Shown piece after piece: positions 11,808 through 44,878 of a stretch of DNA of 64,000 bases (position 1 is its first letter; every line of letters begins with the position of its first letter). The DNA comes from Candidatus Parvarchaeota archaeon (GTDB taxonomy: Archaea > Nanobdellota > Nanobdellia > JAAOXT01): contig JAFCDO010000001.1 of NCBI GenBank assembly GCA_017609605.1, forward strand, positions 9,281-73,280. Reading direction: 5' to 3'. The notes beneath the pieces are model-generated. The model made no database searches. It had not been told where the DNA came from and saw nothing but the letters and a program-made list of their open reading frames with translations. Position numbers and translations under genes: made by a program.

Positions 11808-11879
11808 TTCCAAGTTAGAAATGCTTCCCTGTTTTGGAATAACTTCTTCGTATTCTTTGCTTTAAGTAATCAACGATTT

Positions 11880-12311
11880 TCATGCAGTGGTTTTAATCAA
11901 AACTTCTGTTCTCTTAACGAATTCTTCAACGCCTTTAACAAATGTTTTCAAATCCGCTTTCTTAATAGTTATCGAACTCTTCCAATTCTTGACCACGAAA
12001 CCTCCTGAGAACTGTTTGACTTCCTTATTCTGAAAACTCCTTAGGAAAAAATAAGTTTCGTAAAAATCTGCTTTAAGCGAGTTCTGCTCGACAACATCTC
12101 TCATAGCTGAAGACGTTTCGAATCCTGCAACGTACACTTTGTTTCTCTTGAGCAAAACGCTTGCAACAAGGTTCATGGCGTTAATCAAATGATTCACAAA
12201 AATCATGAAGTTGAAACTACCTTTTTCATCAAAAGCCTTCAACATTCTTTTTGTTTTTTCGAGCTCGCTACGAGCCCGTTCAAAAGAGTAAACTTGTTCA
12301 GCGCCAATCAT
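11880..12311 (-). CDS. Hypothetical helical protein; tandem paralogue of 12308-12763
   Basis: It overlaps the upstream gene by 4 nt. The two have similar length and similar helix pattern. Confidence 0.5.
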   Translation of the reverse strand: MIGAEQVYSFERARSELEKTKRMLKAFDEKGSFNFMIFVNHLINAMNLVASVLLKRNKVYVAGFETSSAMRDVVEQNSLKADFYETYFFLRSFQNKEVKQFSGGFVVKNWKSSITIKKADLKTFVKGVEEFVKRTEVLIKTTA

Positions 12312-12763
12312 TTTATTTTTCCATCAATTTTATTAATCAAGGTCTTAGCCAATGATAAATATTTCTTTAATTGGGGAAGACCAATCCTAATGCTTTCCAG
12401 CTCGGACGTTAGGATAAACACTTCATCTTCTCTCTCAACCTTAACCCCGGTTTCAAGATTTTTTGAAACCCTTATAAAATCAATAATCCACTGCGCGTCA
12501 CTGATTTTGAAGAATTTCTTGTAAGTATCGATGAAAAAACGTATTTGCAGTCCACTATCAATAGGAACGGAGCGAATACGTTTATACAACCTTTCATTGA
12601 TTAAGAACGCTTTTATCATGTAAATAATGCTCTGATTCAAGTGACGAATCGCGCTGGCAAAAAGCTTCTTATCCTTGACCAATGGAAAAGTCACATAAGT
12701 TATATGATCAGCCAATCTCAATTCGCGCTTAGCATCATCTAAAACGTCAGTAACGCTTTCCAT
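12308..12763 (-). CDS. Hypothetical helical protein; tandem paralogue of 11880-12311
   Basis: 151-aa ORF. The AKRELRLADH...AIRHLNQSIIYMIKAFL pattern resembles the partner's ARSELEKTKR...VNHLINAMNLVASVLL. Confidence 0.5.
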   Translation of the reverse strand: MESVTDVLDDAKRELRLADHITYVTFPLVKDKKLFASAIRHLNQSIIYMIKAFLINERLYKRIRSVPIDSGLQIRFFIDTYKKFFKISDAQWIIDFIRVSKNLETGVKVEREDEVFILTSELESIRIGLPQLKKYLSLAKTLINKIDGKIK

Positions 12764-18228: not shown

Positions 18229-18585
18229 ATGCTTAACATCTGGGATGGGATAAACCCTGCACGATTGAAGGATGACTGGTTGCTCAAAGAGCACGGAGAA
18301 TTGCACGAAGTCATTCGAGTTCTTAACGACGAAGAAAACATCAACCTGTTCCCAGAGGCAATAAAGTTTTTCGGCAAACTCGGTTACTTAAAAAGAAGGC
18401 ACGATCTCGTCGCCAAAGAAATGACTCGCCGAGAAATAGGTCACCACACGCCAATAACTTTAAGCGAAATCCCGGACGATGACGAATGGACCAGTGAAAC
18501 AGGCAGGAAAAGCGTTGAAAAAATGGTTCAGCACTTAAACAAAGAAAAAGCTTTCAACAACCTCGAATTCCCCCTAACCTTTTAA
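18229..18585 (+). CDS. T4 endonuclease V (DenV)-like pyrimidine-dimer DNA glycosylase
   Basis: MLNIWDGINPARLKDDWLLKEHGELHEV resembles T4 [24 protein letters not shown], and FFGKLGYLKRRHDLVAKEM resembles FFYDKLEFLRKRQIELIAE. The track start is TTG 18223. Confidence 0.5.
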   Translation: MLNIWDGINPARLKDDWLLKEHGELHEVIRVLNDEENINLFPEAIKFFGKLGYLKRRHDLVAKEMTRREIGHHTPITLSEIPDDDEWTSETGRKSVEKMVQHLNKEKAFNNLEFPLTF

Positions 18586-20733
18586 CTCAGTCCATTCTTT
18601 CAGGCCTTTCTCCTCTTTTCCAGTAAGGGTTTGCTCTTTCACTTTTCCGCCAATCACTTTGCCAAGAATTGACTCCAACTTTTCCAAAGAAACTTTTTTG
18701 ACGCCCCCAACATTTTTTATGCCAGCGTTGAACAATTTCCTCGCCCTAACCCTGCCAACACCTTTAAACTTAAGCAACGGCAATAGCTCTTCCTTAACCC
18801 CGTACTTGAGCCTGAACCTCAACCGCTGAATACTGCTGGTAATGTTGCGAATTTTCAAGAGTTTTGCGAGCTCCTGAGCTGAGTACAACACCCAATCAAT
18901 ATTATACAGTTTGACTCGCAACTGTCCTGGAGGCACCCGCCACTTTTCCATCAAGTAATCCTCCCCCTTCTCATCCAACCAGTCCGAAAACATTAGTGAA
19001 GTCTTAAAAGCTGAAACGTAACTCATGAATGAATAATCCCATGGGCTTGGCTCGTCCTCCAGTAAAACGTCAGAAAACTCTGCTAGCATGGACTGAAGCT
19101 CCAAGAACTCGGCGTCTTTAACGTAAAGCGATGGCTTCATTTCAATCGTGTTGCAAGCCATATGCAATAATGACATTCCCTCAAAAATTTTTTCTTTTGA
19201 GCGTTCCAAGCGTTGAATCAGGTTTCGACCTGTTAAAGGGTCTAAGTAAAGTTCTGAAATCCTTTTTCCAATAAGTGTTGCCTGCAACTTATCATCAATT
19301 TCCGTGGCAAAACCCCACTCTACGAACTCGTCAACAATCTTATCAAGTTTGCTCTCGATTTCCTGAATGTTACCATACTGTTTGGCGTAAAAAGTTTGGC
19401 CGAAAAACTTGGCCAATTCTTCTCTGGAGCGAGCGAAAAGCGATGCAATCAAGGATAGGGAGTGCATTCTCAGCACGGGCTCCACCCCTAGTTTGGACAG
19501 TATTTCTTCACTATCCCCAAACACGTACCTCTCAAAAATCTCTTCTTTCTCCTCGTCGCTGCGAGCAATGCACAAGGCTTGACCATCCTCATCGTACCCC
19601 GGCCTGCCCGCCCTGCCCGCGAACTGATGGTACTCAAGCACTGGAATCCACGCCATGCCATGATGCGTTGAATAGCGCTTCAAATCCCTGATCACGACTC
19701 TCCAGGCGGGTAGGTTAACTCCCATGGCGAGCGTGGGGGTTGCGCACAAAATTTTTAGCAACCTGTTTTTGAAAGCTTCTTGCAGCAAGTTTCGCTGAGA
19801 GTTCATGAGCCCTGCGTGGTGGAACGCAACTCCTGACAAAACACCCTCAGATAATCGTTTGCATTGAGTGGTCGGGGATTCCAAAGCGTTCAGCACTTTA
19901 TCGCTTAGTTTTTCGAGTTCTTGTTTCTCCGAGCTTGTTAGAAAAGTTTTGACCAAGCTTTTCAGTTTTCTTGCCAAGCTCTCAGCGTTTCTCCTTGAGG
20001 ATAAAAAGAAGATGCACTGCTTTTTTTTGGACAACGTGTCTTTAGCGAGGTTAGCTGACGGGTCGTTTTCCGCTGAATCAACTTTTTTTTCTTGATTTCC
20101 AAAATAGATTTTTCCGTTTTGGTAAACTCCTTTAAACAGTTTGACCGGACGATAATCGCTCTTGACCAATTCGGCGTCCAGCCATAGGGATAGTTCTTCA
20201 GCGTTGCTTATCGTGGCCGATAGAGCAATGAATTGCGCTCTTGGAATTATTTTTCTCAGCTTAGTCAGCAGGACTTCAAGTGTGGGCCCTCTTCCCGGGT
20301 CCGTGATTAAATGGCATTCGTCAATTATCACCGTGCTTATCGAAAAAATCCATGGAGCTCCGTGACGCATTAATGAATCCATTTTCTCGAAAGAAGATAT
20401 TATGATATCATGGTTGGACAGCCACTCGTCTCCGGAATCGTAATCGCCCACGCTCAAACCAACTTTGTATTGAGGATAAGCTTTTTTGAATTCCTCGCGT
20501 TTCTCGAAAGCAAGGGCTCGAAGCGGGACTAAGTAAAGCGCTTTACCCTTTCCTTTTAAAAGATTGTGCAGAAAAGCCATTTCGGCCACTAGCGTTTTTC
20601 CAGAAGCCGTGGGGGACGCTATCACCATGTTTTTGCCTTCGAAAAGGCCTTGTTCTACAGCCAGTTTTTGGGGAGGTCTTAGTTCAGTGAAACCCCTGTC
20701 TTCAAAGAATTTTAAGACTTTTTCTTTAACCAT
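18574..20733 (-). CDS. hel308: Hel308/Hjm (Ski2-like) DNA helicase
   Basis: RPPQ Q-motif, Walker A SPTASGKT, DECH box, SATISN, HHAGL, QFAGRAGRPG and a C-terminal HhH-like region (GVGRVRARKLFNAG). Confidence 0.9.
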   Translation of the reverse strand: MVKEKVLKFFEDRGFTELRPPQKLAVEQGLFEGKNMVIASPTASGKTLVAEMAFLHNLLKGKGKALYLVPLRALAFEKREEFKKAYPQYKVGLSVGDYDSGDEWLSNHDIIISSFEKMDSLMRHGAPWIFSISTVIIDECHLITDPGRGPTLEVLLTKLRKIIPRAQFIALSATISNAEELSLWLDAELVKSDYRPVKLFKGVYQNGKIYFGNQEKKVDSAENDPSANLAKDTLSKKKQCIFFLSSRRNAESLARKLKSLVKTFLTSSEKQELEKLSDKVLNALESPTTQCKRLSEGVLSGVAFHHAGLMNSQRNLLQEAFKNRLLKILCATPTLAMGVNLPAWRVVIRDLKRYSTHHGMAWIPVLEYHQFAGRAGRPGYDEDGQALCIARSDEEKEEIFERYVFGDSEEILSKLGVEPVLRMHSLSLIASLFARSREELAKFFGQTFYAKQYGNIQEIESKLDKIVDEFVEWGFATEIDDKLQATLIGKRISELYLDPLTGRNLIQRLERSKEKIFEGMSLLHMACNTIEMKPSLYVKDAEFLELQSMLAEFSDVLLEDEPSPWDYSFMSYVSAFKTSLMFSDWLDEKGEDYLMEKWRVPPGQLRVKLYNIDWVLYSAQELAKLLKIRNITSSIQRLRFRLKYGVKEELLPLLKFKGVGRVRARKLFNAGIKNVGGVKKVSLEKLESILGKVIGGKVKEQTLTGKEEKGLKEWTELKG

Positions 20734-20798: not shown

Positions 20799-20806
20799 TT
20801 TATAAA
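20799..20806 (+). promoter_or_regulatory. TATA-box-like element
   Basis: TTTATAAA lies about 27 nt upstream of ATG 20830. Confidence 0.4.
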
Positions 20807-20829: not shown

Positions 20830-22014
20830 ATGAAAAAGGGTCAAATAGCGGTTCCAGTCGCGTTAATCCTATTCATAATCCTTTTCGTGTTCTACATTAT
20901 TTGGGTTCAGCCCCCTGAAAGGCAAAGACTACTCAACCCCGGAAACGAAATGATAAGCGGGGACGGCAACGCTACCTTAGGCGAGCACGACTTATTCCAC
21001 ATCATAGGAATAGGATGGGTTGGAAAAGGAACTGGAGAACCAATAATGACCCATGATTTCGGCACTGCCAGCCTTGACTACCCTTTAATCGACAAAGATT
21101 TGGAGAGCATGCCTCAATTAAGGTTAACAACCAGCATTTTCAGCGCAGGCACTTACACCAAAAGCTTGAACTTTGATGAACTGGGCCTCGAAAGAATAAC
21201 TGTTAGTTTCAAAACAGGAACAGTTATCGGGACGCCAACAATTAACGTTTTCGTTGACAGCAAGAACATTTATTCCGAAACAGCCGTGAACGGGCAAATA
21301 GTTTCCCTAGAATTAGATAACAATGTTTACGAAGGCACGAATACCTTAAGAGTAGAATGCGTTTTCAAAGGAATGGCTTTCTGGGAAACACAGGTTTGCG
21401 GGCTTAACAGTTTCAAAATTGTTGAGCACGCGTACTCGCTGAACGTGAACGAGGTTTCTCGAGAATTCAGTTTATCAAGCGTCGTCGATGGGACAGCAAA
21501 AATTTATTTCAAAGTCGTGAACGCTCAAACAAATGGAACCATGTCTCTCAGGTTAAACGACGTCCTAATTTACAATGGCAAGCCCTCTGAAAGAGAAGCT
21601 AGATACCAAGCAGAGGTCAGCACCACTTCAGCGGGGTTGACAGCAGGTATTAACACCATAAGTTTTTCAACAAGTCCTGGAGGCGTTTATGATTTATCTG
21701 ACGTGCAATTTTCCTTGTTTGAGAGGGACGTTGGCGTCTCAAGCTACGACATTTATTATAACGTTCAGGGAGACGTTGTCGATAAAGCTAGCAACTTTAC
21801 TGTAGAGTACGATTTGGCTAACATGGCTCCGAACGGGGGTTTAGAATTCGTGTTCAGACAAGTCACGAAGTACGAGAGAGCTGACTCCATAAACAGGGGT
21901 TACAACAGGTTCATTCTCCCAAGCTCTGAGATAGATTTGGGTTCTAACAAACTAACCATCACGAGTCAGGAAGGCAGATTTAACTTGAACAGCGTGAGAA
22001 TGTACTGGAACTGA
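20830..22014 (+). CDS. Secreted protein with a class III (prepilin-like) signal peptide and three beta-sandwich-like repeats
   Basis: N-terminus MKKGQIAVPVALILFIILFVFYI. A motif of the type G.N.L.I...F.L..V recurs three times (GTNTLRVEC, GINTISFST, GSNKLTITS). Confidence 0.6.
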   Translation: MKKGQIAVPVALILFIILFVFYIIWVQPPERQRLLNPGNEMISGDGNATLGEHDLFHIIGIGWVGKGTGEPIMTHDFGTASLDYPLIDKDLESMPQLRLTTSIFSAGTYTKSLNFDELGLERITVSFKTGTVIGTPTINVFVDSKNIYSETAVNGQIVSLELDNNVYEGTNTLRVECVFKGMAFWETQVCGLNSFKIVEHAYSLNVNEVSREFSLSSVVDGTAKIYFKVVNAQTNGTMSLRLNDVLIYNGKPSEREARYQAEVSTTSAGLTAGINTISFSTSPGGVYDLSDVQFSLFERDVGVSSYDIYYNVQGDVVDKASNFTVEYDLANMAPNGGLEFVFRQVTKYERADSINRGYNRFILPSSEIDLGSNKLTITSQEGRFNLNSVRMYWN

Positions 22015-22105
22015 CAAATTCACTTAATCTCTTTCTTTTTAATTGAGCTTATTGGATAGAAAAAGTTTAAAACAAATCAGCTCCAAATTATTTAACGTCT
22101 ATATA

Positions 22106-24418
22106 ATGGGTTGGCCTAAAACAAGCAAGCGGGGAATGGTGGACATAGGAATAAGTGGTGATGAACTAGGATTAAACATTGGAAATATAGGGTTACCCCA
22201 AGTCCTGGCAACAATCATCATCTTAATGGTTGTTATCGCTTTAGGCGGCATCTTCCAAGGAATGGAATGGATTTTCTCCTGGATAACCCTCATCCTCGCG
22301 ATAGCCCTCTCAAAAATACTTTTCGGAGAACTAAAATTCCTAGGACTCATAGCTCCCTTCGTGGTCATGGGAAACCTCATGCTACCTGGAGGCGGGGCTG
22401 CTGGCGCCATCCTTGAAGGCTCCAACATGATCATTGCAATCTTGGCAAACGTGCCAACCATAATCCTCATGCTAATAAGCTACATGACCGCCAAGGATAG
22501 CGGAGAAAGCGAAGGAAACGCGGGAAAAGCGATATACATAATCGTATTATTCCTATTCATAATACGTCTTATAGGATTTATATTTAGTATAGAATTAATA
22601 CAAGGCTTCTTCAACTTAATGATTTTTAACATGTGGTCGCCAAGCCAAGCAATAGCAGGAGTCCCCCCACTCGGTCCAGAAGGAGGTCCTTTCTACAACA
22701 TCCTCAGCTACCTCATAAAAGCAGGACTGCTCATAGGAGTCTTCCTCATGGTTGACTACCCTGCAAAAAGCATAAGCCCAGAAATCTTCAACTACACATG
22801 GATGCTAGGAGTAACTTTCATATTTTTCTACGCAATAATCTGGATGCCATTTCTTGTAACCAATCCAGTGATTAGAAGCAGTTTCGGAGTCATGGCAGGA
22901 GCGAGCAGAGGGATGAGCGAAAACCTAGCCAATTCTTTCAACACTATTCTAATGCCCCTCACCAATCCTGAAGCCTACGAACTACAACAACAAGCCAGTT
23001 TCAGGTCAGGAGGAAGCTTAATAGGAAACATTGGTAGCGCGCCACCCAACACGGGCTTCACTGTAACCAGCGTACAATTACTTCCCGATAGGATAAACCT
23101 TTTCACGAACCGCACCAGCGTGGTGATAGAAATAAAAAATGACGGGGATGCTGACATCAAAGAAATGAACGTCACTTTCACAGGAGAAATACTTCCCGGC
23201 GGAGTGGAAGGCCAAAAAGTATTGTTTGACTGCAAAGGCAGGGGCAGAACTTCTGGATATAACATCACCGAAACAGTGTGGAAATGGGATGATTACCTCC
23301 GCGTAACAGACATTCCAAAAGGAACCAGCGCGAGAATAAACTGCGAAACCATCGAAGTCATTGGAGTCCTTGAAGGCGACGCGGTAAACATTGTCGCGGA
23401 AGCAACCACTGAATACTACACTCGAACCCTTTACCCAATAACCATTATAGAAAGTAAGTACGCTAAAGAAAAAATGGAGCAGGGACTCATGCAGTTCTCC
23501 AACCCAAAAACCACTGTATCTTACGGAACAGTTCTGAGCAGTCAAAGCATCGGAACACAACCCGTCTTCGACACAACAGGCACGTCCATATTCACTTGGG
23601 GAATAGTGAACGCTGGAAGCGGTTACGTCAACCAGGTGAACAAGATATACTTATCAGTACCTCAAGAATTATCCGACCCAACCCGAATCAACGACCAGAC
23701 TTACTGCACGACCGACGGCATGACGCTGAACGAGGACAGAACGCGCTGCGAAGGGGCGTGCGCGCCCGGGTTCTACGAATTAAACGCTCAACAACTCTAC
23801 GACGTGGGCTGGGACTTATTAAGCATTGACAAGCCCTGCGGTTACTACGCTTGCAGGGCAGGGCAGGAAAACTACTGCACTGGTGGAGGCGAAACTTGGT
23901 GCTGCAAAAACAGTTATTTAGATGACGCTGGAGCGTTAAACACTGTGGTGTGCGCGGAAAGCTATGACACGGGGTGCAAGGAAGCGGGTTCAGGAATCGT
24001 CAGACAAGAAAACAAGTACGATGCGTACGAAGTGCCTGACACTTGCCCACCCAGCCTGAGAACAAGTGTTGGGGGATGGTTCCTATGCCAAAGATTCTCG
24101 GAAGAACCGGTGAGCACTAAAGAATTCCAGTGCTACAACCAAACCGCGAACACGGAAGACCAACTGCTCGTGATAACAGGCCTGCTTGATAAAGTGGAAG
24201 ACGAATACTTAACAGAAAGCCTGGACGCGTTATCCCAGTTAGGATACGTGGTTTGCGAAAGCCAACTGCCCAGCGTGGAAGAAGGAAGCCTGTACAGATT
24301 CCCAATATACGTAAACCCTCTAAAAGCTGAAAAAGAAAAAACCTTTCTGATAAGAGGCGACGTCTTCTACACTTACACCAAAAAAGGAAGCGCTCAAGGA
24401 ACTGTGGTGAAACAATGA
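22106..24418 (+). CDS. Polytopic membrane protein (about 9 TM) fused to an extracellular beta-scaffold with a Cys-rich insert
   Basis: Hydrophobic N-terminal third, then VVIEIKNDGDADIKEMNVTF, Cys-rich WCCKNSY...VVCAESYDTGC, and terminal strand DVFYTYTKKGSAQGTVV. An alternative TTG start lies at 22043. Confidence 0.6.
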   Translation: MGWPKTSKRGMVDIGISGDELGLNIGNIGLPQVLATIIILMVVIALGGIFQGMEWIFSWITLILAIALSKILFGELKFLGLIAPFVVMGNLMLPGGGAAGAILEGSNMIIAILANVPTIILMLISYMTAKDSGESEGNAGKAIYIIVLFLFIIRLIGFIFSIELIQGFFNLMIFNMWSPSQAIAGVPPLGPEGGPFYNILSYLIKAGLLIGVFLMVDYPAKSISPEIFNYTWMLGVTFIFFYAIIWMPFLVTNPVIRSSFGVMAGASRGMSENLANSFNTILMPLTNPEAYELQQQASFRSGGSLIGNIGSAPPNTGFTVTSVQLLPDRINLFTNRTSVVIEIKNDGDADIKEMNVTFTGEILPGGVEGQKVLFDCKGRGRTSGYNITETVWKWDDYLRVTDIPKGTSARINCETIEVIGVLEGDAVNIVAEATTEYYTRTLYPITIIESKYAKEKMEQGLMQFSNPKTTVSYGTVLSSQSIGTQPVFDTTGTSIFTWGIVNAGSGYVNQVNKIYLSVPQELSDPTRINDQTYCTTDGMTLNEDRTRCEGACAPGFYELNAQQLYDVGWDLLSIDKPCGYYACRAGQENYCTGGGETWCCKNSYLDDAGALNTVVCAESYDTGCKEAGSGIVRQENKYDAYEVPDTCPPSLRTSVGGWFLCQRFSEEPVSTKEFQCYNQTANTEDQLLVITGLLDKVEDEYLTESLDALSQLGYVVCESQLPSVEEGSLYRFPIYVNPLKAEKEKTFLIRGDVFYTYTKKGSAQGTVVKQ

Positions 24419-27400
24419 ACCAAAAAACCTGGCTCACTTTATCACTTATCATCATTCTAGCTGGCTGCACCGCAACGGGTCCATCAAAAACAGAGTCTAA
24501 GCTAAAATCAAACGAAGGAGTCGGAGCCTTAGAATTCAGGGTAGGAACCACCACCCTACTGCCAGCAGGTCAAGAATACGTTGAACTCGTAATCAGGAAT
24601 AACGCTCTCGGAGACGACGCGAAAAACATTGTGGTATCACTGGATAACGTCGCCCCTTTCAAAATAGTGGAATGCGGAGGCGCGTACGAGCCTAACACTT
24701 ACCGAGCGCAATGCCCTAACAACGATTACAATCCATCCACTTTGGACTGCGAGACCGAAGGAAACCCTCGCTCATGCCCTTCAGGCTATTCTCTAAAACT
24801 TGTTGACGGCGAATACGTTTGCCAATCAATAACCGGCTCAAGCTACGCTGATGTCATGTCAGGCATTTGCAGGCCTCACAGCAGTGACCCCTCCTACATT
24901 GGAATGATAATGGACCAGTTCAGGAACGACCCTAACCTCGCGCAACTAGCTTTACAACACCCTAACGAACAATACTTTGTTCAAAAATGTCCTGAAAACT
25001 ATCAATACGTTCCAGTAGAAGAAGCTGGAAGAATACAGTTTTACTGCTACACCCCGTCTTGCGGTCCGGACTCTACCACGTGCGATTCATGGTGCTGCTC
25101 TGACAAGAGTTCAGGAGTTACTTGCGGCGAATCCAACTCGTGCGTCAACATTGGCGGAGAAACAATAAGTCAATCATACTATCCTTGGTATGATGGAATA
25201 ACCCCTTGTTCAGAGAACAGTTATTATTGTGCGACAGACACGCTTGACGCTTCAAGCGTGAGCCAATACACTTGCGACTGCAGGTTTTACGGCTCAGAAT
25301 CCTCCACTGCATTAATCATAAGCGACGACTGCCCCACAAACTGTGCATGCGGGTTCGGGTCAGGAAGAGATCAGGAAGTGAAAATAACAGAATCATCAAT
25401 TGAATGGTGTGAAGGGTTCTACGACATGGATCCAACAGTTACTTACTCGCAAAGAGCGATGAACAAATTACTAGCTGACGACGAGCTTGACGTCTTATGG
25501 TTATTGCAAGCACCTATAGACGTCATGATAAACAATCTTCCTTACGACCATAGAATAAGCTACTCCGTAAATTATGATTACTCGACGAGCGCGACGCAAA
25601 ACGTTATAGCGCTAAGCCAAAGCGAAGTGCAAAGAAAAAAGAGGAGTGGCGAGCAATGGAAAATATCGGGGACTTCCAGCGAGTCTAATAGCGAGGTCGG
25701 CATCCACCCTGAAACCAGTCAACCAATCATATTCCCTGACTCTGGTAACAGTCCCAAATACAACTATGTTTTCAGCGTGCAAAACATTGGAGTAGGATAT
25801 ATTGGAAAAAAACAGGCCATAGTCGTGGTAACTTATCCCCAAGAACTTGACCTTTCAGAAGATGGCTTAGAAAAATATGGTTGGACAAAAGGAGTAATTA
25901 ACGCTGACGCGTTTGTGCAAGGACAATGCATTGAAACTAAAGGGGGAAGCCTGCAGGAATGCGGCAACTTCCTGTGCGAGCCAGGAGAAAACTTCTGCTC
26001 GTGCTCAACTGATTGCAGTCCCGTCCCAGAAGGAAGTGCTTGCTGCAAGGCAACACAGTACGACACTCAAATGTACGCTTGCTGTGACGGAAACCTTTTC
26101 ACTGCTAGTGACGCTCAAGGAAAAGAATGTTGCGGAGGAAGATTCGTTGAAAGCGCTGGGAGTGGAGAAACATTCATTTGTTGTGATGGTAATCCGCGCT
26201 ACGTGACAAGCCCTGACTTCATTTGTTGTGGAAACAATTTTGTAGACCTTAAAGATTATTACCGAACAATGATTGAACCGGGTTGCTGCGGAGGAAGAAT
26301 TGTTGATTTAATGACTGGCGTGTGCGAGGACGGTGTTTACTTAAGAGGAGGAATAACACTGGATTCAACAATCCTTCGCTGGACTCCACTAATCTCTCAC
26401 ACCCTCTTTTTAGACATTCACTCTCTCAGAGAAGTAGAGTACACCGGCCCAATTACTCCACCAGCCACCCCAACTCTTCTTTCATTAACCCCTTCAGATC
26501 CTTTCTACGTGCAAGACGACGAGGGAGAAGAAGACCCTGACCTCGGCGTAAACATTTGGAGCGAAACTGATGGAAAGATTGCAACATCCTGCATTAACCA
26601 AAACGGCAAGCCATTAAGCGCTGTCGACAAATCCGGGGACGGCTTCTTTACAGGCGAGTCAACAACCAAAAATTACTGTCCGACGAGTTGGACGAACCAT
26701 TTGATAAGCATGTACGAAAGCGGTTCAGAAATCACTAGCGCGAACCTAGGGGATTACTCATTATCATTAATATCCAAAGGGCTTACCATAACTTCTCCAG
26801 CCCAAAACCTGGGAGAACTGGTCTTCGTGGTTAACGACTACTTAGAGTTAAAGGCGAAAAACAGTGAAGGAACAATCAAATATTATTACCCTGAAACCAC
26901 GACAACTTATTCGGACTACTTATCAAGCCCTGAAACAGTCAACTGGATGCTAACAAACGATTACACGCCTCCATCCGGTTACTTGCACGTGGACTCAATT
27001 GGAATCTACTTTGACACCGCGTCCGCTTATTCAGGCGTGAAGGCAGTGCACGTCTTAGAAGGGGAAACTGGTTACGTCACGTTCTCATCCACATCCATTG
27101 ATAGTTGCGTGGCCACTGTGTGCGCTCAAGACGAGAACCATTGCTCCATTGAAGGAGAAGAGTGGTGTTGTTCTAACACTTACGAGTCAAGAACAATGGT
27201 TTGCGGGGACGAAGCACTTTCCTGCAAGACCGCCGGGTCTTTTTGTTATGAAGGTGAAGAAACGTGCGGTTCAGGAGTTGACAAGTGGTGCTGCGACTCG
27301 GGATTAGGTTGCGGGGAGGCAGTGAACACTTGTGGTCCTGCGGAAGAACCTGGAAACTCATTAGATCAAATAGCTTATGATATTGGACAAGAAATATTAA

Positions 27401-28380
27401 ACGCGCCGAACTGTGATGGGGACGTTGCCCGCACAACTCTTTCGGAAATTACTTATTACACTTGCAGTGACGTAACAACAATAATCAGTGCTGGCGGGGA
27501 CTGCGATCAAACCTGTTCTCGCGACGAGAATGGTCACAGGTGCTATGTTGGCGTTGACAGCAGGGGTTATTGCTCAACAAGTTATTGCGCGCCAGGGCTT
27601 TGCAACGACGGTGTTTGCAACCCATTAGAGCTCGCTGGCGTCACAGGAATTGGTTGTGAAAACTGGAATTGCCAGGACTTACTGGACAACGGTTTTGACG
27701 ACGATTGGAACGGCTTAACTGATGGGGAAGACGAGCTCGCCGGAGGGAGGGCGGAAGCTTGGGGTCAGGAAAGTCTTTGCGATGGAGTGGACAATGAAGG
27801 AGATGGAATGGTTGACGGGATGGACGGGGAATCAATAAGCAGGGCTTGCCAGGACTACACTGTTGGGTCGTGCGTTAGCGGAGAACAACAATGCGTTAAC
27901 GCTCAATGGAGTGTGTGCGACGCTTTGACTTATGAAGACTGTAATGGTTTGGACGATGACTGCAATGGATTAGTAGATGACGCGACTGACTTTGAAATGT
28001 GCGGTAAAGGAATGATATGTTATCTTGGAAAATGTGAAGCCGTCACTAGTAGTTGCACGTGCCCAGAAGGCTCCGACCTTTTCAGCGATAAATGCATTTC
28101 TTACGGGGCGTGCACGTGCCAGCGGCAGGGAGTGGAGATGACAACTCAGTTAGGCACTAACTCGGTTAGCCAGATAATATCTCCTGAAAGACTTGCTGGA
28201 GGAAGAATATTCATACTTCCATTTACTTTTGGGAACGCGACGGACCCTGGTAGCGAGATGAGAAGTCTTCAGTTCAATAAGATCCCTCAAAAAACGTACA
28301 CTTTTAATATTAAGATTTACTACACTTATGTTATTAGCGGTGACACGAGCGTAAGCGTGGTCCCGCCTAACCTAATATGA
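24415..28380 (+). CDS. Giant (1321 aa) Cys-rich surface lipoprotein
   Basis: Lipobox LIIILAGC. Scaffold strands are shared with the three neighbouring genes. It carries CC-dipeptide repeats, W-C-C modules, CNGLDDDCNGLVDD-type motifs and terminal IKIYYTYVISGDTSVSVV. There is an ATGA overlap upstream. Confidence 0.7.
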   Translation: MNQKTWLTLSLIIILAGCTATGPSKTESKLKSNEGVGALEFRVGTTTLLPAGQEYVELVIRNNALGDDAKNIVVSLDNVAPFKIVECGGAYEPNTYRAQCPNNDYNPSTLDCETEGNPRSCPSGYSLKLVDGEYVCQSITGSSYADVMSGICRPHSSDPSYIGMIMDQFRNDPNLAQLALQHPNEQYFVQKCPENYQYVPVEEAGRIQFYCYTPSCGPDSTTCDSWCCSDKSSGVTCGESNSCVNIGGETISQSYYPWYDGITPCSENSYYCATDTLDASSVSQYTCDCRFYGSESSTALIISDDCPTNCACGFGSGRDQEVKITESSIEWCEGFYDMDPTVTYSQRAMNKLLADDELDVLWLLQAPIDVMINNLPYDHRISYSVNYDYSTSATQNVIALSQSEVQRKKRSGEQWKISGTSSESNSEVGIHPETSQPIIFPDSGNSPKYNYVFSVQNIGVGYIGKKQAIVVVTYPQELDLSEDGLEKYGWTKGVINADAFVQGQCIETKGGSLQECGNFLCEPGENFCSCSTDCSPVPEGSACCKATQYDTQMYACCDGNLFTASDAQGKECCGGRFVESAGSGETFICCDGNPRYVTSPDFICCGNNFVDLKDYYRTMIEPGCCGGRIVDLMTGVCEDGVYLRGGITLDSTILRWTPLISHTLFLDIHSLREVEYTGPITPPATPTLLSLTPSDPFYVQDDEGEEDPDLGVNIWSETDGKIATSCINQNGKPLSAVDKSGDGFFTGESTTKNYCPTSWTNHLISMYESGSEITSANLGDYSLSLISKGLTITSPAQNLGELVFVVNDYLELKAKNSEGTIKYYYPETTTTYSDYLSSPETVNWMLTNDYTPPSGYLHVDSIGIYFDTASAYSGVKAVHVLEGETGYVTFSSTSIDSCVATVCAQDENHCSIEGEEWCCSNTYESRTMVCGDEALSCKTAGSFCYEGEETCGSGVDKWCCDSGLGCGEAVNTCGPAEEPGNSLDQIAYDIGQEILNAPNCDGDVARTTLSEITYYTCSDVTTIISAGGDCDQTCSRDENGHRCYVGVDSRGYCSTSYCAPGLCNDGVCNPLELAGVTGIGCENWNCQDLLDNGFDDDWNGLTDGEDELAGGRAEAWGQESLCDGVDNEGDGMVDGMDGESISRACQDYTVGSCVSGEQQCVNAQWSVCDALTYEDCNGLDDDCNGLVDDATDFEMCGKGMICYLGKCEAVTSSCTCPEGSDLFSDKCISYGACTCQRQGVEMTTQLGTNSVSQIISPERLAGGRIFILPFTFGNATDPGSEMRSLQFNKIPQKTYTFNIKIYYTYVISGDTSVSVVPPNLI

Positions 28381-29417
28381 AAAAAGAAGTTTTGCTAACA
28401 ACATTCATCATTTTAACTAGTGTGGTTATGGCTGGATGCACGCAAACCGAAACGACAAGGAGTGGAGAAGAAGTTGTTCTTGGGAATGGAATGGCAATAC
28501 TGAATTTTACCACCACGCAAACCCACGCTGAACCCAAAGACGAGCTAACATTCGTTCTCACAGTCCAAAACGTTGGGAACCTGCAGGCAAGGCAAGTCTT
28601 CTCAGAAGTCTACGCTTACGGGGAATTGATAAACCTTACTCCCTTGCGTCAGACGACCACGTCACCCAACCTTGACGTTTTTGACAAGGACGAAATAGTT
28701 TGGGACTTTCAAGTGCCTGAAGACCTAGCAGTGTACAATAATTACTACCCTTTTGCCAGGGTTTGTTACGTTTACAACTCAACAGCTTACTCTGACGTGT
28801 TATTTGTTGGCACAAGATGGAATCAAGATATACCTGTGCTGGTTAAAGGTTCTAGCAGGGCGCCGTTAAAAGTGGGTTTTGAAACCAAAGAGCCTTACAA
28901 AGGGGAAAAGCAGGATCAATCATTTGAAGTAACTATAACTAATATTGAAAACGGTTTCGTGGCGAACAACACGAACAAGATAAACGATATCAGTGTTTAC
29001 AATTACGGGAACGAGAATCTCATAACCAAGGTAACCCTGATAATAACTGGGCTGACTGAAGAGTTCTTAAACGCGACAGGGGAGCCGGAAACTCGGACCA
29101 TAATCAATTTCACGGGGTATGATAAGAAATTTAACGAGCCAGGCATTCAGCAAGCGGACTTCAGTTGCGAGATTCAAAGCAGTGATGAAACAGTGCTGGA
29201 AGAGTTTAATCAAGGATTAGTGGAGCCAGGCGCGCAAGTTGTTTGCACTGCGAAAAACGTTAGAATGATGGTCGGCTTGGAGAGAAGCCTCAAAATATTC
29301 TTCAACACCAATCCTGGAAGAAGTGACAGCGAGGTCAGCGGAAGAATAAGAGCAATAATTGATTACAGGTACTGCGTGCAAAGCCCCGCCCTGTCCATTA
29401 CTGCTGAACCTGACTGA
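28377..29417 (+). CDS. Surface lipoprotein; minimal form of the locus scaffold (paralogue of 29461-30333)
   Basis: Lipobox VVMAGC; WDFQVPEDLAVYNNYYPFARVCYVYNSTAYSDVLFVG; terminal SGRIRAIIDYRYCVQSPALSITAEP. Confidence 0.65.
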   Translation: MKKEVLLTTFIILTSVVMAGCTQTETTRSGEEVVLGNGMAILNFTTTQTHAEPKDELTFVLTVQNVGNLQARQVFSEVYAYGELINLTPLRQTTTSPNLDVFDKDEIVWDFQVPEDLAVYNNYYPFARVCYVYNSTAYSDVLFVGTRWNQDIPVLVKGSSRAPLKVGFETKEPYKGEKQDQSFEVTITNIENGFVANNTNKINDISVYNYGNENLITKVTLIITGLTEEFLNATGEPETRTIINFTGYDKKFNEPGIQQADFSCEIQSSDETVLEEFNQGLVEPGAQVVCTAKNVRMMVGLERSLKIFFNTNPGRSDSEVSGRIRAIIDYRYCVQSPALSITAEPD

Positions 29418-29460
29418 AAACTTTTATAAAAGAGCGATTACACTGATTATCATTATTAGA

Positions 29461-30333
29461 ATGAAAGCCCTACCAATAATCGTTTTTCTGACAATGATTA
29501 TCCTGTTAGGTTGCGTTGGAGAACAACCAAAAGGAAAAGGAATTATCATAGACTCTTTTGAAGCGGATTCGGCCTCGTTAAGGCCGGGTGACGAGTTAAC
29601 CATCAACGCCAAAATAACCAATCAAGGCGACGTTGTTGCCGAAAAAATTTATGGCGAGATCCTTAACACCGCTGACCTTAAAGTCACTGGAGGCATGAAA
29701 AAAACTGTTAGCAAACTGCACCCTGAAGAGGACGCAGAGTTCAGCTGGGTCATGCAAATCCCTGAAGACCTTGCTGTCAGGGGCTCGTACATGCCTAAAA
29801 TGAGGTTGTGCTACGTTTACAGAACCATTTCTTATCAAGACGTGTTCGTGGCAGGCAATAACTGGAACGGCGAAGTTCCTGAAATGCTGTCAGGCACTAA
29901 CAGGGGAGTGGTTGACATGTCATTCGAGGTTAATCGTCTTTACGACGAGAAAGAGAATGCTTTTCTAAAAATCAACGTTCATAATGACAAGGTTAAAGGT
30001 TTTGTGGGCAACGACACGATCAGTGATTCTTATTATGGTGCTCCCGAGTACGTGAAAACAGTCGTGCTAACCATTCCTAAGATGGGTGGAAGAATTAACA
30101 TGGAAGGGGTTGAGCAACCCCACTTTGACTGCTTGGAAGGGGTTGACGAGTTCACTTGCACTGCAAGCGATGTTAAACTAATAAGCGGGACTGACAAGAG
30201 TTTAAAAGCGGTTTTTAACGTGGCTCCACTGGACGATTTTGACGAGGCTTCAGGAAGGCTGAACGCTTTCGTTGTTTACAGGTATTGCACGGACTCACAG
30301 CAAATAAGCATTGTAGCCCAACCAAGATATTAA
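29461..30333 (+). CDS. Surface lipoprotein; paralogue of 28377-29417
   Basis: Lipobox IILLGC; SWVMQIPEDLAVRGSYMPKMRLCYVYRTISYQDVFVAG; terminal SGRLNAFVVYRYCTDSQQISIVAQP. The track start at 29359 lies inside the upstream gene. Confidence 0.65.
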   Translation: MKALPIIVFLTMIILLGCVGEQPKGKGIIIDSFEADSASLRPGDELTINAKITNQGDVVAEKIYGEILNTADLKVTGGMKKTVSKLHPEEDAEFSWVMQIPEDLAVRGSYMPKMRLCYVYRTISYQDVFVAGNNWNGEVPEMLSGTNRGVVDMSFEVNRLYDEKENAFLKINVHNDKVKGFVGNDTISDSYYGAPEYVKTVVLTIPKMGGRINMEGVEQPHFDCLEGVDEFTCTASDVKLISGTDKSLKAVFNVAPLDDFDEASGRLNAFVVYRYCTDSQQISIVAQPRY

Positions 30334-41485: not shown

Positions 41486-44323
41486 ATGAATGTAATGAGA
41501 CGAGCTCAAGTGGGAATGGAGTACTTGGTACTAATATCTTTTTTCCTGCTCGTAGTCACACCTCTATTCTATTTCGCGTCAGACAGAAGTCAAAAAACAA
41601 CTAACTTAAGAGAAATTCAGATGACTGTTGATAAATTAGAGAACGCTATCAACACTGTTTACGCTGATGGGCACCCAGCGCAAAGAGAAATACTGGTTTT
41701 AATCCCTAAACTAATCAACTCCTCAGGAACTTACCTTAACGGCAGCACTGTTAATTATGCCATCAATTTTGGTGACAGGACGACAGACGTTTTCGCTGAC
41801 ACGGCCACCTGCCTTGAAGGAACTGTGCCAGTAGACCCAGGATATTATAGGATTATAATCAAGGCTTTGGAAAACGGGTGCGTGGACATAGACGTGGCTA
41901 ACATCGCGATAATTCCTCAATCCCTCAACGCTTTAGTGGATTATTCAAGAAATTTCACTCAAAGTTTTCAATTAACCAATTTGCAGGAAGCCACGATAAC
42001 AGGGATAACTGTCAACGCGATCGGAACCCTCATCAATCGCGTTGACGTTGACTCAAACGAGCCTGGCAGGCAGGACAACACGAACATTGGTGACTTAGGA
42101 GTCGGTGAGAGCAAGAATTTAGTAATAACCTTTTATGGAGACGATTACCCCGCGGTTTACGAAGGCAACCTCTCGCTGAAAGGTTTTGGCATGGCTAACA
42201 CCACGATTCCAGTCAAGTTAACCGTAAGCGTGGGAGAACTCACTATCTCGGGTTTAGAAAACGTGAACGTTGCCATAAACACGAACAAAACCATGTCATT
42301 AACAGTTTCAAACGTTGGAGCTGGCTCGTTGTTCAACACCAATCTCTCGTTGAGCAGTGAGCTCATCGGCTACGTTGACCTTAACGCTTCAACGATTGAA
42401 AAAGAGGATTTTATTGACTTAGGAACAATGGCTTCTGGAAGAAGTCAGGATTTGACTTTAAAACTGTTCGGTCTCTCTTACGGAACTTTTAACGGGTTAA
42501 TCCTCGGGAACTCCCAGCCAGGCGTTGCAGGAACCAATTCTTACAATCATTCGTTGAGCATAACCGTCGGGGACGACACCGTGCTACCCGTCATTAACTC
42601 GACGAGCGTGGATAAAACAAGTGCAATAATTGGTGGTTTGTTGTGCGTGAACGCGACTGCCACGGACGACACCCAGATAGAATCTATCTGGGTAAGTGTA
42701 ACGAACCCTGACATGCAAGCAATTAATGTCACGCTAACTGATACTGGGAGCGCGTGCGCGGGAATCAACGGGGATAACTGGTTCGGAGCAGAAATATTGT
42801 TAAACGTTAACGGGACGTGGATGGTTAACACTTCTTACGCCAAAGACACTTCGGAAAACGTTGGTTTCGAGAACGCTAACTTATTGGTCAGCGTGGAAGG
42901 AACAGACAGCATTCCTCCCATAATAACTATTGATTACCCTAAGAACGCTTCTTACCCCACCAACTCGTTCTGGATTAACGCCACCCTCAACGAAAAAGGA
43001 TCGTGGTGCGGTTACAACGTTGACTTCGCGTCACCGACAAACGTGACCATGGACCAGGAGAACGATACCAACTTTTATTCAAGCGTGACAGGTCTGTCGG
43101 ACGCAACTCATTCCATAACAGTTTACGGCAAGGACATTTACAACAACACTAATCATACTGGAAGCACTGTTCACTTCACTGTTGACACGCAAAACCCTGT
43201 TCTGGAAAACTGCAGTCTAACCAGCGAATACTTACGCGAAGGCGAGTTCTCCCAAGTCAGTTGCGACGTTATTGATGCCAACAAGGACCAAGCCTGGTTC
43301 CAAATAGGAGGACAAACCCTTCCTTCAACAGGAAAATATGGTAACACTTACTCAACGAGTTTTTATTGCTCTGAGACCGGCATCAATGAGTGGAGCACTG
43401 CTCACGCAAACGACTCGGCGGGGAACGAAGGAAGCGTCAGTGTAGGGGTTAACATTACTTGCGACACGGTTCTTCCAATCGTGAACTCAACTGCAACGAA
43501 CCAGAGTAATGCAGAGGTTGGGCAAACTATTTGCTTAAACACCCACGTTTCAGACAATTATAACGTCAGCATGGTTTGGGCTGAATTAATCACTCCATTG
43601 GACACTACTTACAACCAAATACTTTCTGACACAGGGAATCCTTGCTCAGGGGTTGAAGGAGACGGGGTTTATGGAGGAGAGCTTTATTTATTGGCCATCG
43701 GGAACTGGACTCTTGTGACCAGCCACGCCAATGATCAGGCAGGCAACACTGGAACCGACGAGTTCCACGAGAACGAAACCATTACAGTAATTTCTGGTAC
43801 AGGGGGTGGAGGGGGTTACACTTATGTTGACGTTAGCCGGGCGTATTATTTTAAGACTAACGGGCATGGAAAAAGCACTGCTGACTCTGACATGAAGTCT
43901 TGGGAAAACATAACACTTGACTTTACTGATGACAACCCTAACACTCCTGCAAGTGCTTACCAATTATTGATGGACATAAAACTGTTTGATTACGATAAGT
44001 ATGAGGGTTATGTTGTGAAGCTGGATGCTGACCCGAGTTTGTATTCTAAGGTTATCTTGAAATTCAAGGTGGACTCGTTCGATTACGAGCCTTACCCGAT
44101 AAGGATTCATGCTTATAATTCCGATGGAGAGACCATACTAACAGATACTGGTTTCACGGAGTACACTTACAGTTCAACTGGTTGGCACGAGGTTGATGTT
44201 ACGGACACGGCTCATAGAATGAATGGTTTTGGTTGGATGAGGTTTAGGATAATCCCAAAATTCGCTTGGTGGATTGATAACAAGAAATCAAGATGGGTTG
44301 AGGTTGATTTTGGAATAGAATGA
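41486..44323 (+). CDS. Giant prepilin-like adhesin (class III signal peptide plus multiple beta-sandwich/Ig-like domains)
   Basis: N-terminus MNVMRRAQVGMEYLVLISFFLLV. The N-domain is shared with 56472-58631. Internal repeats begin at DTVLPVINSTS and DTVLPIVNSTA. N-x-S/T sequons are dense. Confidence 0.75.
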   Translation: MNVMRRAQVGMEYLVLISFFLLVVTPLFYFASDRSQKTTNLREIQMTVDKLENAINTVYADGHPAQREILVLIPKLINSSGTYLNGSTVNYAINFGDRTTDVFADTATCLEGTVPVDPGYYRIIIKALENGCVDIDVANIAIIPQSLNALVDYSRNFTQSFQLTNLQEATITGITVNAIGTLINRVDVDSNEPGRQDNTNIGDLGVGESKNLVITFYGDDYPAVYEGNLSLKGFGMANTTIPVKLTVSVGELTISGLENVNVAINTNKTMSLTVSNVGAGSLFNTNLSLSSELIGYVDLNASTIEKEDFIDLGTMASGRSQDLTLKLFGLSYGTFNGLILGNSQPGVAGTNSYNHSLSITVGDDTVLPVINSTSVDKTSAIIGGLLCVNATATDDTQIESIWVSVTNPDMQAINVTLTDTGSACAGINGDNWFGAEILLNVNGTWMVNTSYAKDTSENVGFENANLLVSVEGTDSIPPIITIDYPKNASYPTNSFWINATLNEKGSWCGYNVDFASPTNVTMDQENDTNFYSSVTGLSDATHSITVYGKDIYNNTNHTGSTVHFTVDTQNPVLENCSLTSEYLREGEFSQVSCDVIDANKDQAWFQIGGQTLPSTGKYGNTYSTSFYCSETGINEWSTAHANDSAGNEGSVSVGVNITCDTVLPIVNSTATNQSNAEVGQTICLNTHVSDNYNVSMVWAELITPLDTTYNQILSDTGNPCSGVEGDGVYGGELYLLAIGNWTLVTSHANDQAGNTGTDEFHENETITVISGTGGGGGYTYVDVSRAYYFKTNGHGKSTADSDMKSWENITLDFTDDNPNTPASAYQLLMDIKLFDYDKYEGYVVKLDADPSLYSKVILKFKVDSFDYEPYPIRIHAYNSDGETILTDTGFTEYTYSSTGWHEVDVTDTAHRMNGFGWMRFRIIPKFAWWIDNKKSRWVEVDFGIE

Positions 44324-44730
44324 AAAAAGCGCAGTTAAGCATCGAGTTTTTCACAACAATCTCTTTCCTAATCATGATTCTCATAACAGTTCTCATAATA
44401 TTTTTTCAGCGGAGCACTTCGCTTAACGACATGTCCAAGAGCGATAATTTAAAAATATCTTGCCAAGAACTAAGAACCAGTTTTTACTCGCTGATAAAAT
44501 CCAATAACTTGATAGAAAACTTATCATTACCCAAGTATTCAGGAGGGCTTCCTTACTCGTATCACGCGTATCCTAATGAATCTGTGGTCGTCATCGGTTT
44601 GGATGACAAATCTTTTATCTGTAACGTTCAAACAACGGGTTTCACCAATTCTTCTATGACTGAGCACGATTTTTTTATCAATCCTTCTGGCACTGCGAAA
44701 AGTGTTGACGAGGTGATAGTGTTTGAATAA
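44320..44730 (+). CDS. Prepilin-like protein (class III signal peptide)
   Basis: MKKAQLSIEFFTTISFLIMILITVLIIFF. There is an ATGA overlap upstream. It is the counterpart of 58628-59005. Confidence 0.7.
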   Translation: MKKAQLSIEFFTTISFLIMILITVLIIFFQRSTSLNDMSKSDNLKISCQELRTSFYSLIKSNNLIENLSLPKYSGGLPYSYHAYPNESVVVIGLDDKSFICNVQTTGFTNSSMTEHDFFINPSGTAKSVDEVIVFE

Positions 44731-44731
44731 A
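44712..44731 (+). repeat. Direct repeat, copy 1
   Basis: GGTGATAGTGTTTGAATAAA. It matches 44879-44898 at 19 of 20 positions, with the first 15 identical. Confidence 0.8.
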
Positions 44732-44791
44732 CGATTCTTCTTCAAAAACTCAGAAACCTCACAACTTCACCAAAAAAGTTTTTTGGTCAAG

Positions 44792-44861: not shown

Positions 44862-44878
44862 GCAAGAAAAAGGTTGGG

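Follow-up and report, generated by a model that had tools for sequence, protein, structure and literature searches.

A conserved five-gene locus for membrane-tethered Ig-like surface proteins in Nanoarchaeota-type DPANN archaea

What does a tightly packed block of five genes (g1 to g5) in the genome of Candidatus Parvarchaeota archaeon (assembly GCA_017609605.1, contig JAFCDO010000001.1) encode, and do its products act together? DPANN archaea make up a large share of archaeal diversity, most of them appear to be cell-attached, and their surface and host-contact proteins are almost entirely unknown. In the 64,000-nucleotide (nt) stretch of DNA that we analysed (the window; positions 9,281 to 73,280 of the contig), the block spans positions 20830-30333 of the + strand. 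It is a real, conserved and essentially uncharacterised operon for membrane-tethered Ig-like surface proteins, in which g2, g3 and the related pair g4 and g5 (g4/5) appear to represent three paralogous families with N-terminally tethered, two-domain beta-sandwich ectodomains, and g1 a fourth new family. The open reading frames (ORFs) of the window give the following genes:

20830..22014, + strand: g1, 394 amino acids (aa), N-terminally anchored, with a beta-rich ectodomain
22106..24418, + strand: g2, 770 aa, seven predicted transmembrane (TM) helices (aa 32-251) and a ~500-aa ectodomain on the common two-domain scaffold
24415..28380, + strand: g3, 1321 aa, lipobox LAGC, Cys18
28377..29417, + strand: g4, 346 aa, lipobox MAGC, Cys21, two tandem predicted beta-sandwich domains
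29461..30333, + strand: g5, 290 aa, lipobox LLGC, Cys18, paralogue of g4

All five ORFs lie on the same strand and are tightly linked, as the initial annotation of this DNA had described, and the two ATGA overlaps that it placed at 24415 (g2/g3) and 28377 (g3/g4) are both present; besides these 4-nt overlaps, the genes are separated by gaps of 91 and 43 nt. The same annotation had proposed a common scaffold for the last four proteins. The paralogues g4 and g5 correspond over their full length (29% identity, BLASTP E = 8e-47); single-sequence comparisons of g3 or g2 with g4 were marginal. Profiles were compared using family alignments from related loci, from which signal peptides, lipoboxes and TM regions had been deleted before running hhalign. 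This resulted in matches of g4/5 to g3 (98.1%, E 9e-14, 165 columns) and to the g2 ectodomain (96.3%, E 2e-9, 177 columns), as well as of g3 to the g2 ectodomain (90.3%, E 1.5e-6), demonstrating that the four are homologous even without their signal peptides. The N-proximal strand motifs and the terminal Y-x-Y strand quoted in support of the scaffold were all located in the sequence, and the W-x-x-x-(V/A/I)-P-x-D motif is exact in g3, g4 and g5, whereas g2 carries only the variant WKWDDYLRVTDIPKG at the aligned position. No profile similarity was detected between g1 and the g2 ectodomain, g3 or g4/5 (hhalign <1%), and g1 is unrelated to g2-g5.

An AlphaFold2 model of g4, computed from a 13-sequence alignment (predicted local distance difference test, pLDDT, 74.8; predicted template-modelling score, pTM, 0.72), folds into two beta-sandwich domains, D1 (aa 39-170, pLDDT ~90) and D2 (aa 178-343), with disordered loops between strands three and four of D2. 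The g2 model (15 sequences; pLDDT 52.6 overall, 70-85 in the ectodomain core) repeats this plan with D1 at aa 318-448, a short helix, and D2 at aa 476-519 and 714-768. A 170-aa Cys-rich insertion in g2 D2 was left unmodelled and sits at the position equivalent to the low-confidence loops of g4 D2. The corresponding parts of the g2 gene are:

23057..23449, + strand: g2 ectodomain D1 (aa 318-448), CARDB-like beta-sandwich with ..IEIKNDGDADIKEM.., AlphaFold2 pLDDT ~80-85, matched to g4/5 by hhalign
23684..24196, + strand: variable Cys-rich insertion of g2 D2 (aa 527-697), AlphaFold2 pLDDT <35, alignment gaps in relatives

In these models, D1 is predicted to be a conserved CARDB/Ig-like beta-sandwich within ~15-70 residues of the membrane anchor, and D2 a second beta-sandwich, in the loops of which disulfide knots, acidic metal-binding-like motifs or whole extra domains would be inserted, depending on the lineage. 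The g2-g5 ectodomains look like ancient paralogues of one two-domain beta-sandwich design with a clear modular logic, in which the domain next to the membrane is conserved and the outer one varies.

Database searches with all five proteins (Pfam, NCBIfam, PADLOC and PHROGs) returned nothing above threshold, and PDB sequence searches with g2, g3 and the profiles of g4/5 and g1 were empty. No assignment of the scaffold to a known S-layer or CARDB family emerged, only sub-threshold matches: CARDB (PF07705) scored 16.2 bits in g4 and 16.3 bits in g5 against a gathering threshold of 22.7, and fell at E <= 0.05 in only four of 12 family members (best 0.0064). The weak CARDB/NEW3 matches to D1 of g4 and g5 (E ~0.01), all below the Pfam gathering scores, cover the ..N.G...A..I.. 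strand region, and g5 matched the NCBIfam model NF033506, 'putative S-layer protein', at E 0.004 with 15.7 bits against a cut-off of 110. Foldseek, which had been suggested as a check on the scaffold, found no specific known family and returned only generic tandem beta-sandwiches. Its PDB matches for the g4 and g2 models were generic tandem Ig-like modules with template-modelling scores (TM-scores) of 0.1-0.25 (integrin alpha legs, the ClfB/SdrG/CNA/FnBPA adhesins, cohesin dyads, complement MG domains and TTHA1873), and its BFVD matches comprised a DUF11 protein and other generic sandwiches. The earlier remark that no characterised system has this composition is in line with these results, as none was found in Pfam, NCBIfam, PDB, Foldseek, PADLOC or PHROGs either.

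How would these proteins be held at the membrane? The signal peptides of g3, g4, g5 and all their homologues end in [LIVMF]-x-[GA]-C, and the lipobox Cys is retained in 30 of 30 g3- and g4/5-family proteins (11 lineages tabulated). The lipoboxes first noted in the window, LAGC (g3), MAGC (g4) and LLGC (g5), are all present in the sequence; those of g3 and g5 follow the pattern [LVI]-[ASTVI]-[GAS]-C, while g4 has a non-canonical Met at -3. Both the length of 1321 aa and the LAGC motif given for g3 stand. For the last two proteins, described as lipoproteins of about 300-350 aa, the lipoboxes hold and g4 has the expected size (346 aa), whereas g5 is reduced to 290 aa after correction of its start, with ATG 29461 replacing TTG 29359.

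The g3 homologues of other lineages have only 316-557 aa. In the window, g3 reaches 1321 aa because its scaffold core of ~360 aa bears two large insertions, of ~245 aa in D1 and ~745 aa in D2:

24673..25410, + strand: g3 insertion 1 (domain 1; aa 87-332), Cys-rich, with one WCC module
25915..28149, + strand: g3 insertion 2 (domain 2; aa 501-1245)

The family alignment and a regular-expression scan showed that insertion 2 holds six tandem CC(D/G)G repeats (~16 residues each, with the motif at the repeat start), a ~250-aa Cys-poor domain and two WCC modules, together with three acidic C-x-G-x-D-(D/N)-(D/E)-x-(D/N)-G motifs that resemble metal-binding sites. The 'WCC' cysteine-knot module (C-x7-W-C-C-x-[ND]..VCG..C) is present in three copies in g3 and in one copy in the D2 insertion of g2, where g2 and g3 align by BLASTP over the module with E = 5e-5; neither this module nor the CC(D/G)G repeats matched Pfam. 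With 83 Cys in g3 (6.3%), 16 in g2 and five each in g4 and g5, the description of the ectodomains as Cys-rich applies to g3 and g2 and not to g4 and g5, and the Cys content is lineage-specific and derived from the insertions.

For g2, hydropathy predicts seven TM helices rather than the about nine of the initial annotation, and the topology is consistent with N-in, C-out, so that the C-terminal part of about 500 aa would be outside, in agreement with the large ectodomain claimed for this protein. Across the family, the number of TM helices ranges from one to seven, with a single helix in several homologues, and the match to the distant relatives of g2 is confined to the ectodomain. Because of this variation, a conserved 'membrane-embedded base', as first proposed, is doubtful: the TM region is the non-conserved part of the g2 family and looks like an anchor rather than a conserved channel or base. 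Its model is poor (pLDDT 45-60). The NCBI product name of g2, 'MFS transporter', was rejected, since there is no match to MFS or any other Pfam or NCBIfam family and the protein has seven rather than 12 TM helices. A cytoplasmic zinc ribbon forms the N-terminus of some g2 homologues (P0013 and P0014), and the sub-lineage concerned also has a multi-zinc-ribbon protein of 236-242 aa encoded between g1 and g2 (L005 9224-9952; L007 9241-9951). These zinc ribbons hint at a cytoplasmic partner of, or a regulatory input to, the surface module.

To what extent is the block shared by other archaea? Word-indexed homologue searches retrieved only the source organism and one relative with 66% identity, and pattern scans of GTDB genomes with the g2 or g4/5 alignments stayed within the same species. 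An exhaustive HMMER search with g2 against 1.84 billion representative proteins yielded no more than 13 relatives, all of them distant (E 6e-36 to 4e-4). Related loci were gathered from the contexts of these g2 relatives and from motif scans, and were scanned with hidden Markov models (HMMs) that had been built with L011, L012, L015-L018, L020 and L024 held out. The order g1-g2-g3-g4/5, with one to three g4/5 copies, is retained in about 11 lineages, and in every sufficiently flanked locus the layout reads Hel308 on the - strand, g1, g2, g3, one to three g4/5, followed by PAC2, eIF2alpha, GINS and a primase on the - strand. The start/stop overlaps are preserved in related loci as well. While Hel308, PAC2 and primase of the relatives share 44-51% identity with their window counterparts, and eIF2alpha and GINS 30-41%, g1-g5 share only 20-32% over partial lengths. 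The survey of relatives called for at the outset thus confirmed that, wherever the flank suffices, the scaffold genes stay linked to the TM protein and the gene order is complete, and that the five genes, proposed as a dedicated unit, behave as one conserved block across related loci. Neither of the two outcomes that the initial annotation had named as refuting its reading was observed.

The metagenome-assembled genomes (MAGs) that carry the block bear the labels Nanoarchaeota, 'Ca. Woesearchaeota' and 'Ca. Parvarchaeota'; other carriers are an unclassified archaeon and several metagenome contigs. It is also found on a 390-kb scaffold of Ca. Haiyanarchaeum thermophilum, a hyperthermophilic, highly streamlined (~0.4-Mb genome) and probably obligately symbiotic member of the Jingweiarchaeales (PMC10134863). 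Since the same block occupies the same genomic spot in at least ten divergent relatives, it is probably a core part of the cell surface of these archaea; it is vertically inherited and appears to be specific to Nanoarchaeota-type DPANN archaea. Two g2-family relatives (P0009, P0011) lie on contigs of <=2 kb, and one of them is binned as 'Candidatus Thorarchaeota', which is either a mis-binning or the sole hint of the family outside DPANN.

Lineage-specific changes in and around the block are tolerated without breaking it. L008 carries additional g4/5 copies. In L009, from a 'Ca. Woesearchaeota' MAG, a MazE/PIN toxin-antitoxin pair (11819-12498) is inserted between the g3 and g4 homologues, with the rest of the block intact. 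L005 (1561-5646) and L007 (1552-5676) encode, just upstream of Hel308, a protein of 1361-1374 aa that has a signal peptide and is anchored by a TM segment at its C-terminus; the window has no counterpart of this conventional S-layer-type candidate at that position.

Selection on the five genes was assessed from the ratio of non-synonymous to synonymous substitution rates (dN/dS) between the window and the sister strain GCA_018221045.1 ('Nanoarchaeota archaeon DPANNHV_H2.bin.114'; nucleotide identity of 96-97% to the window, 96.7% in this comparison). The values of 0.15 (g1), 0.05 (g2), 0.08 (g3), 0.05 (g4) and 0.13 (g5) fall inside the range of the flanking housekeeping genes (0.04-0.20), and all five genes are under purifying selection. 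Within g3, dN/dS was ~0-0.02 in the scaffold core, 0.04 in insertion 1 and 0.13 in insertion 2; the latter accounts for 35.5 of the 40.5 non-synonymous differences, and all 83 cysteines are conserved between the strains. Purifying selection together with the 83 conserved Cys argues that the genes, including the huge insertions, are functional, and the g3 pattern is what one would expect if the core were constrained and an exposed tip freer to vary, insertion 2 being the most tolerant part. Strain-level diversifying selection was rejected on the dN/dS values of 0.05-0.15, which show no sign of it.

Any view of the function of the locus starts from what has been demonstrated, namely which genes it contains, the homology and fold class of their products, the sequence motifs of the anchors, the conserved synteny and the purifying selection. 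From these we infer a physical complex, its orientation and ligand binding. We tentatively favour a model in which g1-g5 cooperate outside the membrane, as a heteromeric coat or a set of adhesins; D1 would be membrane-proximal, and the variable insertions of D2 would be accessible to ligands or a host. In this model, the five proteins would be exported by Sec, g2 would be held by its N-terminal TM helices, and g3-g5 by a lipid on the lipobox cysteine, added via an archaeal AliA/AliB-type pathway. Lateral contacts between the conserved D1 domains and between the C-terminal strands would then join the paralogues into a heteromeric coat on the outside of the membrane, from which the variable D2 insertions would face outward and bind external ligands, most plausibly the host cell surface.

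Three observations weigh against this model. Strain-level dN/dS lacks the diversifying selection that is frequent among proteins interacting with a host. Synteny extends to the flanking housekeeping genes, and part of the co-conservation could therefore reflect general gene-order conservation in the clade. Because the Foldseek matches are generic, with the low TM-scores given above, they do not single out adhesion. Overall, there is a moderate chance that the operon encodes a host-contact or envelope apparatus of this DPANN group, and if so, the family HMMs would serve as a metagenome-wide marker. Doubtful, in our judgement, is the bolder version of the model, in which g1-g5 would be an unrecognised multi-subunit surface machine and hallmark of Nanoarchaeota-type DPANN archaea that serves symbiont-side recognition and holding of the host or scaffolds an intercellular bridge, with D1 domains forming a ring or raft, D2 insertions setting host specificity and the cytoplasmic N-terminus of g2 coupling the structure to the cell interior. 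In any case, the locus is a concrete and testable candidate, with four new protein families that have no Pfam, NCBIfam or PDB relative and an ordered block that is shared by organisms as far apart as 'Woesearchaeota' from sediments and a hyperthermophile of the Jingweiarchaeales whose genome measures ~0.4 Mb.

Could the block instead form a structural envelope? The main rival to the coat or adhesin model is a structural, S-layer-like role, in which the five proteins would constitute a protective lattice equivalent to an S-layer, tethered by lipid and TM anchors and without a specific role in host contact. Archaeal S-layers are commonly made of Ig-like domains. A fixed position within an informational-gene neighbourhood, purifying selection as strong as that on housekeeping genes and the weak match of g5 to the 'putative S-layer protein' model, although far under its cut-off, are in line with such a lattice, as are the maintenance of the block in a streamlined ~0.4-Mb genome (PMC10134863) and the label 'S-layer-like' that Makarova et al. 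gave to Ig-like surface proteins (PMC6393860). In contrast, known S-layers use one or two proteins and not five or six, the separate 1361-1374-aa protein of L005 and L007 is a more conventional S-layer candidate, and huge lineage-specific insertions, which make g3 a protein of 316 aa in one lineage and of 1321 aa here, are ill-suited to a fixed lattice. Taken together, we regard a purely structural role as unlikely.

If conserved gene order reflected nothing but the stability of the region, g1-g5 could also be independent surface proteins, such as individual binding proteins, which are co-located and kept together by operon inertia and conserved synteny. The synteny of the flanking genes, the variation in g4/5 copy number from one to three and the insertion of unrelated genes into the block (MazE/PIN in L009, zinc ribbon in L005 and L007) are compatible with this. 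Yet every long-enough locus contains one member of each family (g1, g2, g3, g4/5) in the same order, and this order has survived divergence to 20-30% sequence identity and extreme genome reduction, with the start/stop overlaps kept, which renders a mere assortment of independent proteins quite improbable.

A further possibility arises from g1, which had been described as a prepilin-like protein with a class III signal. Its N-terminus consists of MKKGQ and a 19-residue hydrophobic helix (MKKGQ-IAVPVALILF..), followed by a P-x-ER motif, and comparison of orthologue N-termini showed that helix and P-x-ER motif are conserved in the g1 family. The family alignment further shows conservation of a loop with the pattern C..G..FW.TQ.C and a GRF(E/N) strand at the C-terminus, and three of six family members have a weak Pfam match to a domain like a carbohydrate-binding module (CBM; PL4 domain III; best E 2.9e-5). 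The class III-like motif [KR][GAS]Q is present in the window, L001, L016 and L018, absent from the orthologues of L007, L009, L010 and L012, and separated from the hydrophobic stretch in L005. Thus, MKKGQ and the hydrophobic stretch are there as first described, while the motif occurs in only some orthologues.

According to a pilus-dependent, bindosome-like model, g1 would be processed by a prepilin peptidase, assembled by filament machinery located 17 kb downstream, and would nucleate or carry g2-g5. The MKKGQ.. start of g1 indeed shares the [KR][GA]Q pattern with pilin-like ORFs of the window (MKKAQLSIEF.. and MSKAQIFTT..), the orthologues of L016 and L018 begin with MKSQ.. and MRSQ.., respectively, and the window holds an ATPase and two platform proteins in the 'system 1' layout; in addition, a preprint describes class III signals on non-pilin binding proteins (10.64898/2026.04.22.720090). 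However, beyond the loss or displacement of the motif, no pilus ATPase, platform protein or prepilin peptidase is located next to the block in any related locus examined, and the nearest T2SSE/T2SSF genes (46931-50620) are 17 kb distant. The Pfam Class_IIIsignal (PF04021) and pilin N-terminal models did not match g1 at E <= 1, which is weak evidence as the obvious small pilins of the window are likewise unmatched. Because the motif is lost or displaced in five lineages, no pilus gene is adjacent, and helix and P-x-ER motif are conserved, g1 is best treated as an N-terminally anchored protein, for which class III processing in the lineage of the window is possible; assembly of the block by a pilus machinery is very improbable.

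The filament locus itself, at window positions 41486-51441 on the + strand, is a complete archaeal type IV filament locus. Its products include a protein of 945 aa, the N-terminus of which is class III-like (MNVMRRAQVGMEYLV..), and those of four small pilin-like ORFs (MKKAQLSIEF.., MSKAQIFTT.., MKKGFVLITD.. and the ORF at 45782-46624). It also contains genes for a T2SSE ATPase, which ends in a Lys-rich tail, for two T2SSF platform proteins and for a KaiC-like ATPase, and matches the 'system 1' layout of one ATPase and two platform genes described for methanogens and DPANN (10.64898/2026.04.22.720090). Further downstream, a 719-aa beta-propeller/FG-GAP protein (56472-58631, + strand; Pfam Class_IIIsignal E 4.5e-5) is encoded near a second T2SSE ATPase (61945-63456, + strand), and the two may belong to a second filament or bindosome-like system.

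Solute uptake, with g2 as permease and g3-g5 as lipoprotein substrate-binding proteins, is largely refuted: although NCBI calls g2 an 'MFS transporter' and a polytopic membrane protein with lipoproteins is a general pairing, no transporter family of Pfam or NCBIfam matched, g2 has seven TM helices rather than 12 and only one in several homologues, the lipoproteins are predicted to be all-beta sandwiches and not of the alpha/beta periplasmic-binding fold, and the block has no ATPase gene. Two further candidates were rejected, a mobile or viral element on account of the conserved chromosomal synteny and the lack of a PHROG signal, and a defence system for lack of a PADLOC match.

Regarding expression and boundaries of the operon, a single TATA-like box was found among the block genes, upstream of g1:

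20799..20806, + strand: TATA-like box TTTATAAA, read from the sequence, ~27 nt 5' of the g1 ATG

This distance suggests a leaderless operon transcript and, judged by the spacing of archaeal promoters, TTTATAAA is likely its promoter. The start of g2 is most likely ATG 22106 (770 aa) and not TTG 22043, an artefact of the ORF listing, because the NCBI call and the N-terminus of the 66% homologue (MAWPK..) agree on it. The block is preceded by a divergently transcribed Hel308-type helicase gene (18574-20733, - strand) and followed by a convergent PAC2-Nop10-eIF2alpha-S27e-L44e-GINS-primase array, with the stop codons of g5 and PAC2 overlapping in the window (30330-30333). In the sister strain GCA_018221045.1, a 631-bp segment with a uracil-DNA glycosylase gene (L002 18232-18862) lies between g5 and PAC2; the window does not contain this segment. 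Elsewhere in the window, an ORF at 5293-6234 (+ strand) matches Pfam GP88 ('Gene product 88', phage-associated; E 2e-16) and neighbours membrane- and lipid-related genes (MscS, VTT, PAP2, PIG-L and a glycosyltransferase).

How does the block compare with known systems? At the level of operon concept, it resembles the archaeal secretion or membrane complex that Makarova, Galperin & Koonin 2015 (PMC5898192) predicted around arCOG01314, which combines membrane-associated and secreted proteins with extracellular Ig-like domains and includes several Ig-like 'S-layer' subunits. However, DUF4350 (pfam14258), the MoxR-type AAA+ ATPase and the vWA protein of that system were found neither in the block nor among the scanned ORFs of the window (every ORF of >=150 aa that lies neither in the block nor directly beside it, and several smaller ones), nor were its markers among the Pfam marks of related loci. 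Likewise, pfam07760, the Ig-like membrane protein arCOG02884, did not match g2 or its 14 relatives. In a later study, Makarova et al. 2019 (PMC6393860) described the DPANN-only cluster cls.004306 (NEQ255) and referred to Ig-like surface proteins beside a DPANN-specific secreted protein as 'S-layer-like'. Possibly this one-line entry already refers to g1 and its neighbours; the literature searched described neither a scaffold shared by paralogues nor their anchoring by lipoboxes, a fixed order of the genes or any function, and contained nothing relevant on DPANN together with CARDB.

Like Ig-like archaeal S-layer proteins, the products of the block are predicted to be extracellular, membrane-tethered and built of beta-sandwich blocks, and are likely abundant and constitutive, but they comprise five or six different subunits with N-terminal anchors and have no above-threshold match to an S-layer family. 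The MSCRAMM adhesins of Gram-positive bacteria (ClfB, SdrG, CNA, FnBPA) and the 'leg' domains of integrin alpha ranked first in Foldseek for both g4 and g2; they, too, are tandem Ig-like surface beta-sandwiches that present binding sites. They differ in that TM-scores reach only 0.1-0.25 at an identity of <13% and anchoring of g1-g5 is N-terminal, and a motif scan found the LPxTG sortase signal of MSCRAMM adhesins in none of the five proteins. Nor did the generic Foldseek matches point to a DEv-IgG N2-N3 fold with a latch strand or to the dock-lock-latch mechanism. The E-set domains of the CARDB, DUF11 and NPCBM-associated (NEW3) families are similar to the scaffold in the weak D1 matches of g4 and g5 and in the DUF11 and TTHA1873-like sandwiches returned by Foldseek, whereas the g2-g5 unit has its own conserved C-terminal Y-x-Y strand, an N-terminal lipid or TM anchor and an operon context, all of them foreign to the CARDB family. 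Finally, lipoproteins have been reported to be prevalent in DPANN, and g3-g5 and their homologues resemble archaeal lipobox lipoproteins of the AliA/AliB pathway (PMC12462473) in having signal peptides that end in a lipobox. They differ from these in the Met at -3 of g4 and in ectodomains that form a new family, with lipidation here predicted from motifs. The locus thereby adds a family-wide example of lipobox proteins for DPANN and corrects the misleading 'MFS transporter' annotation of g2.

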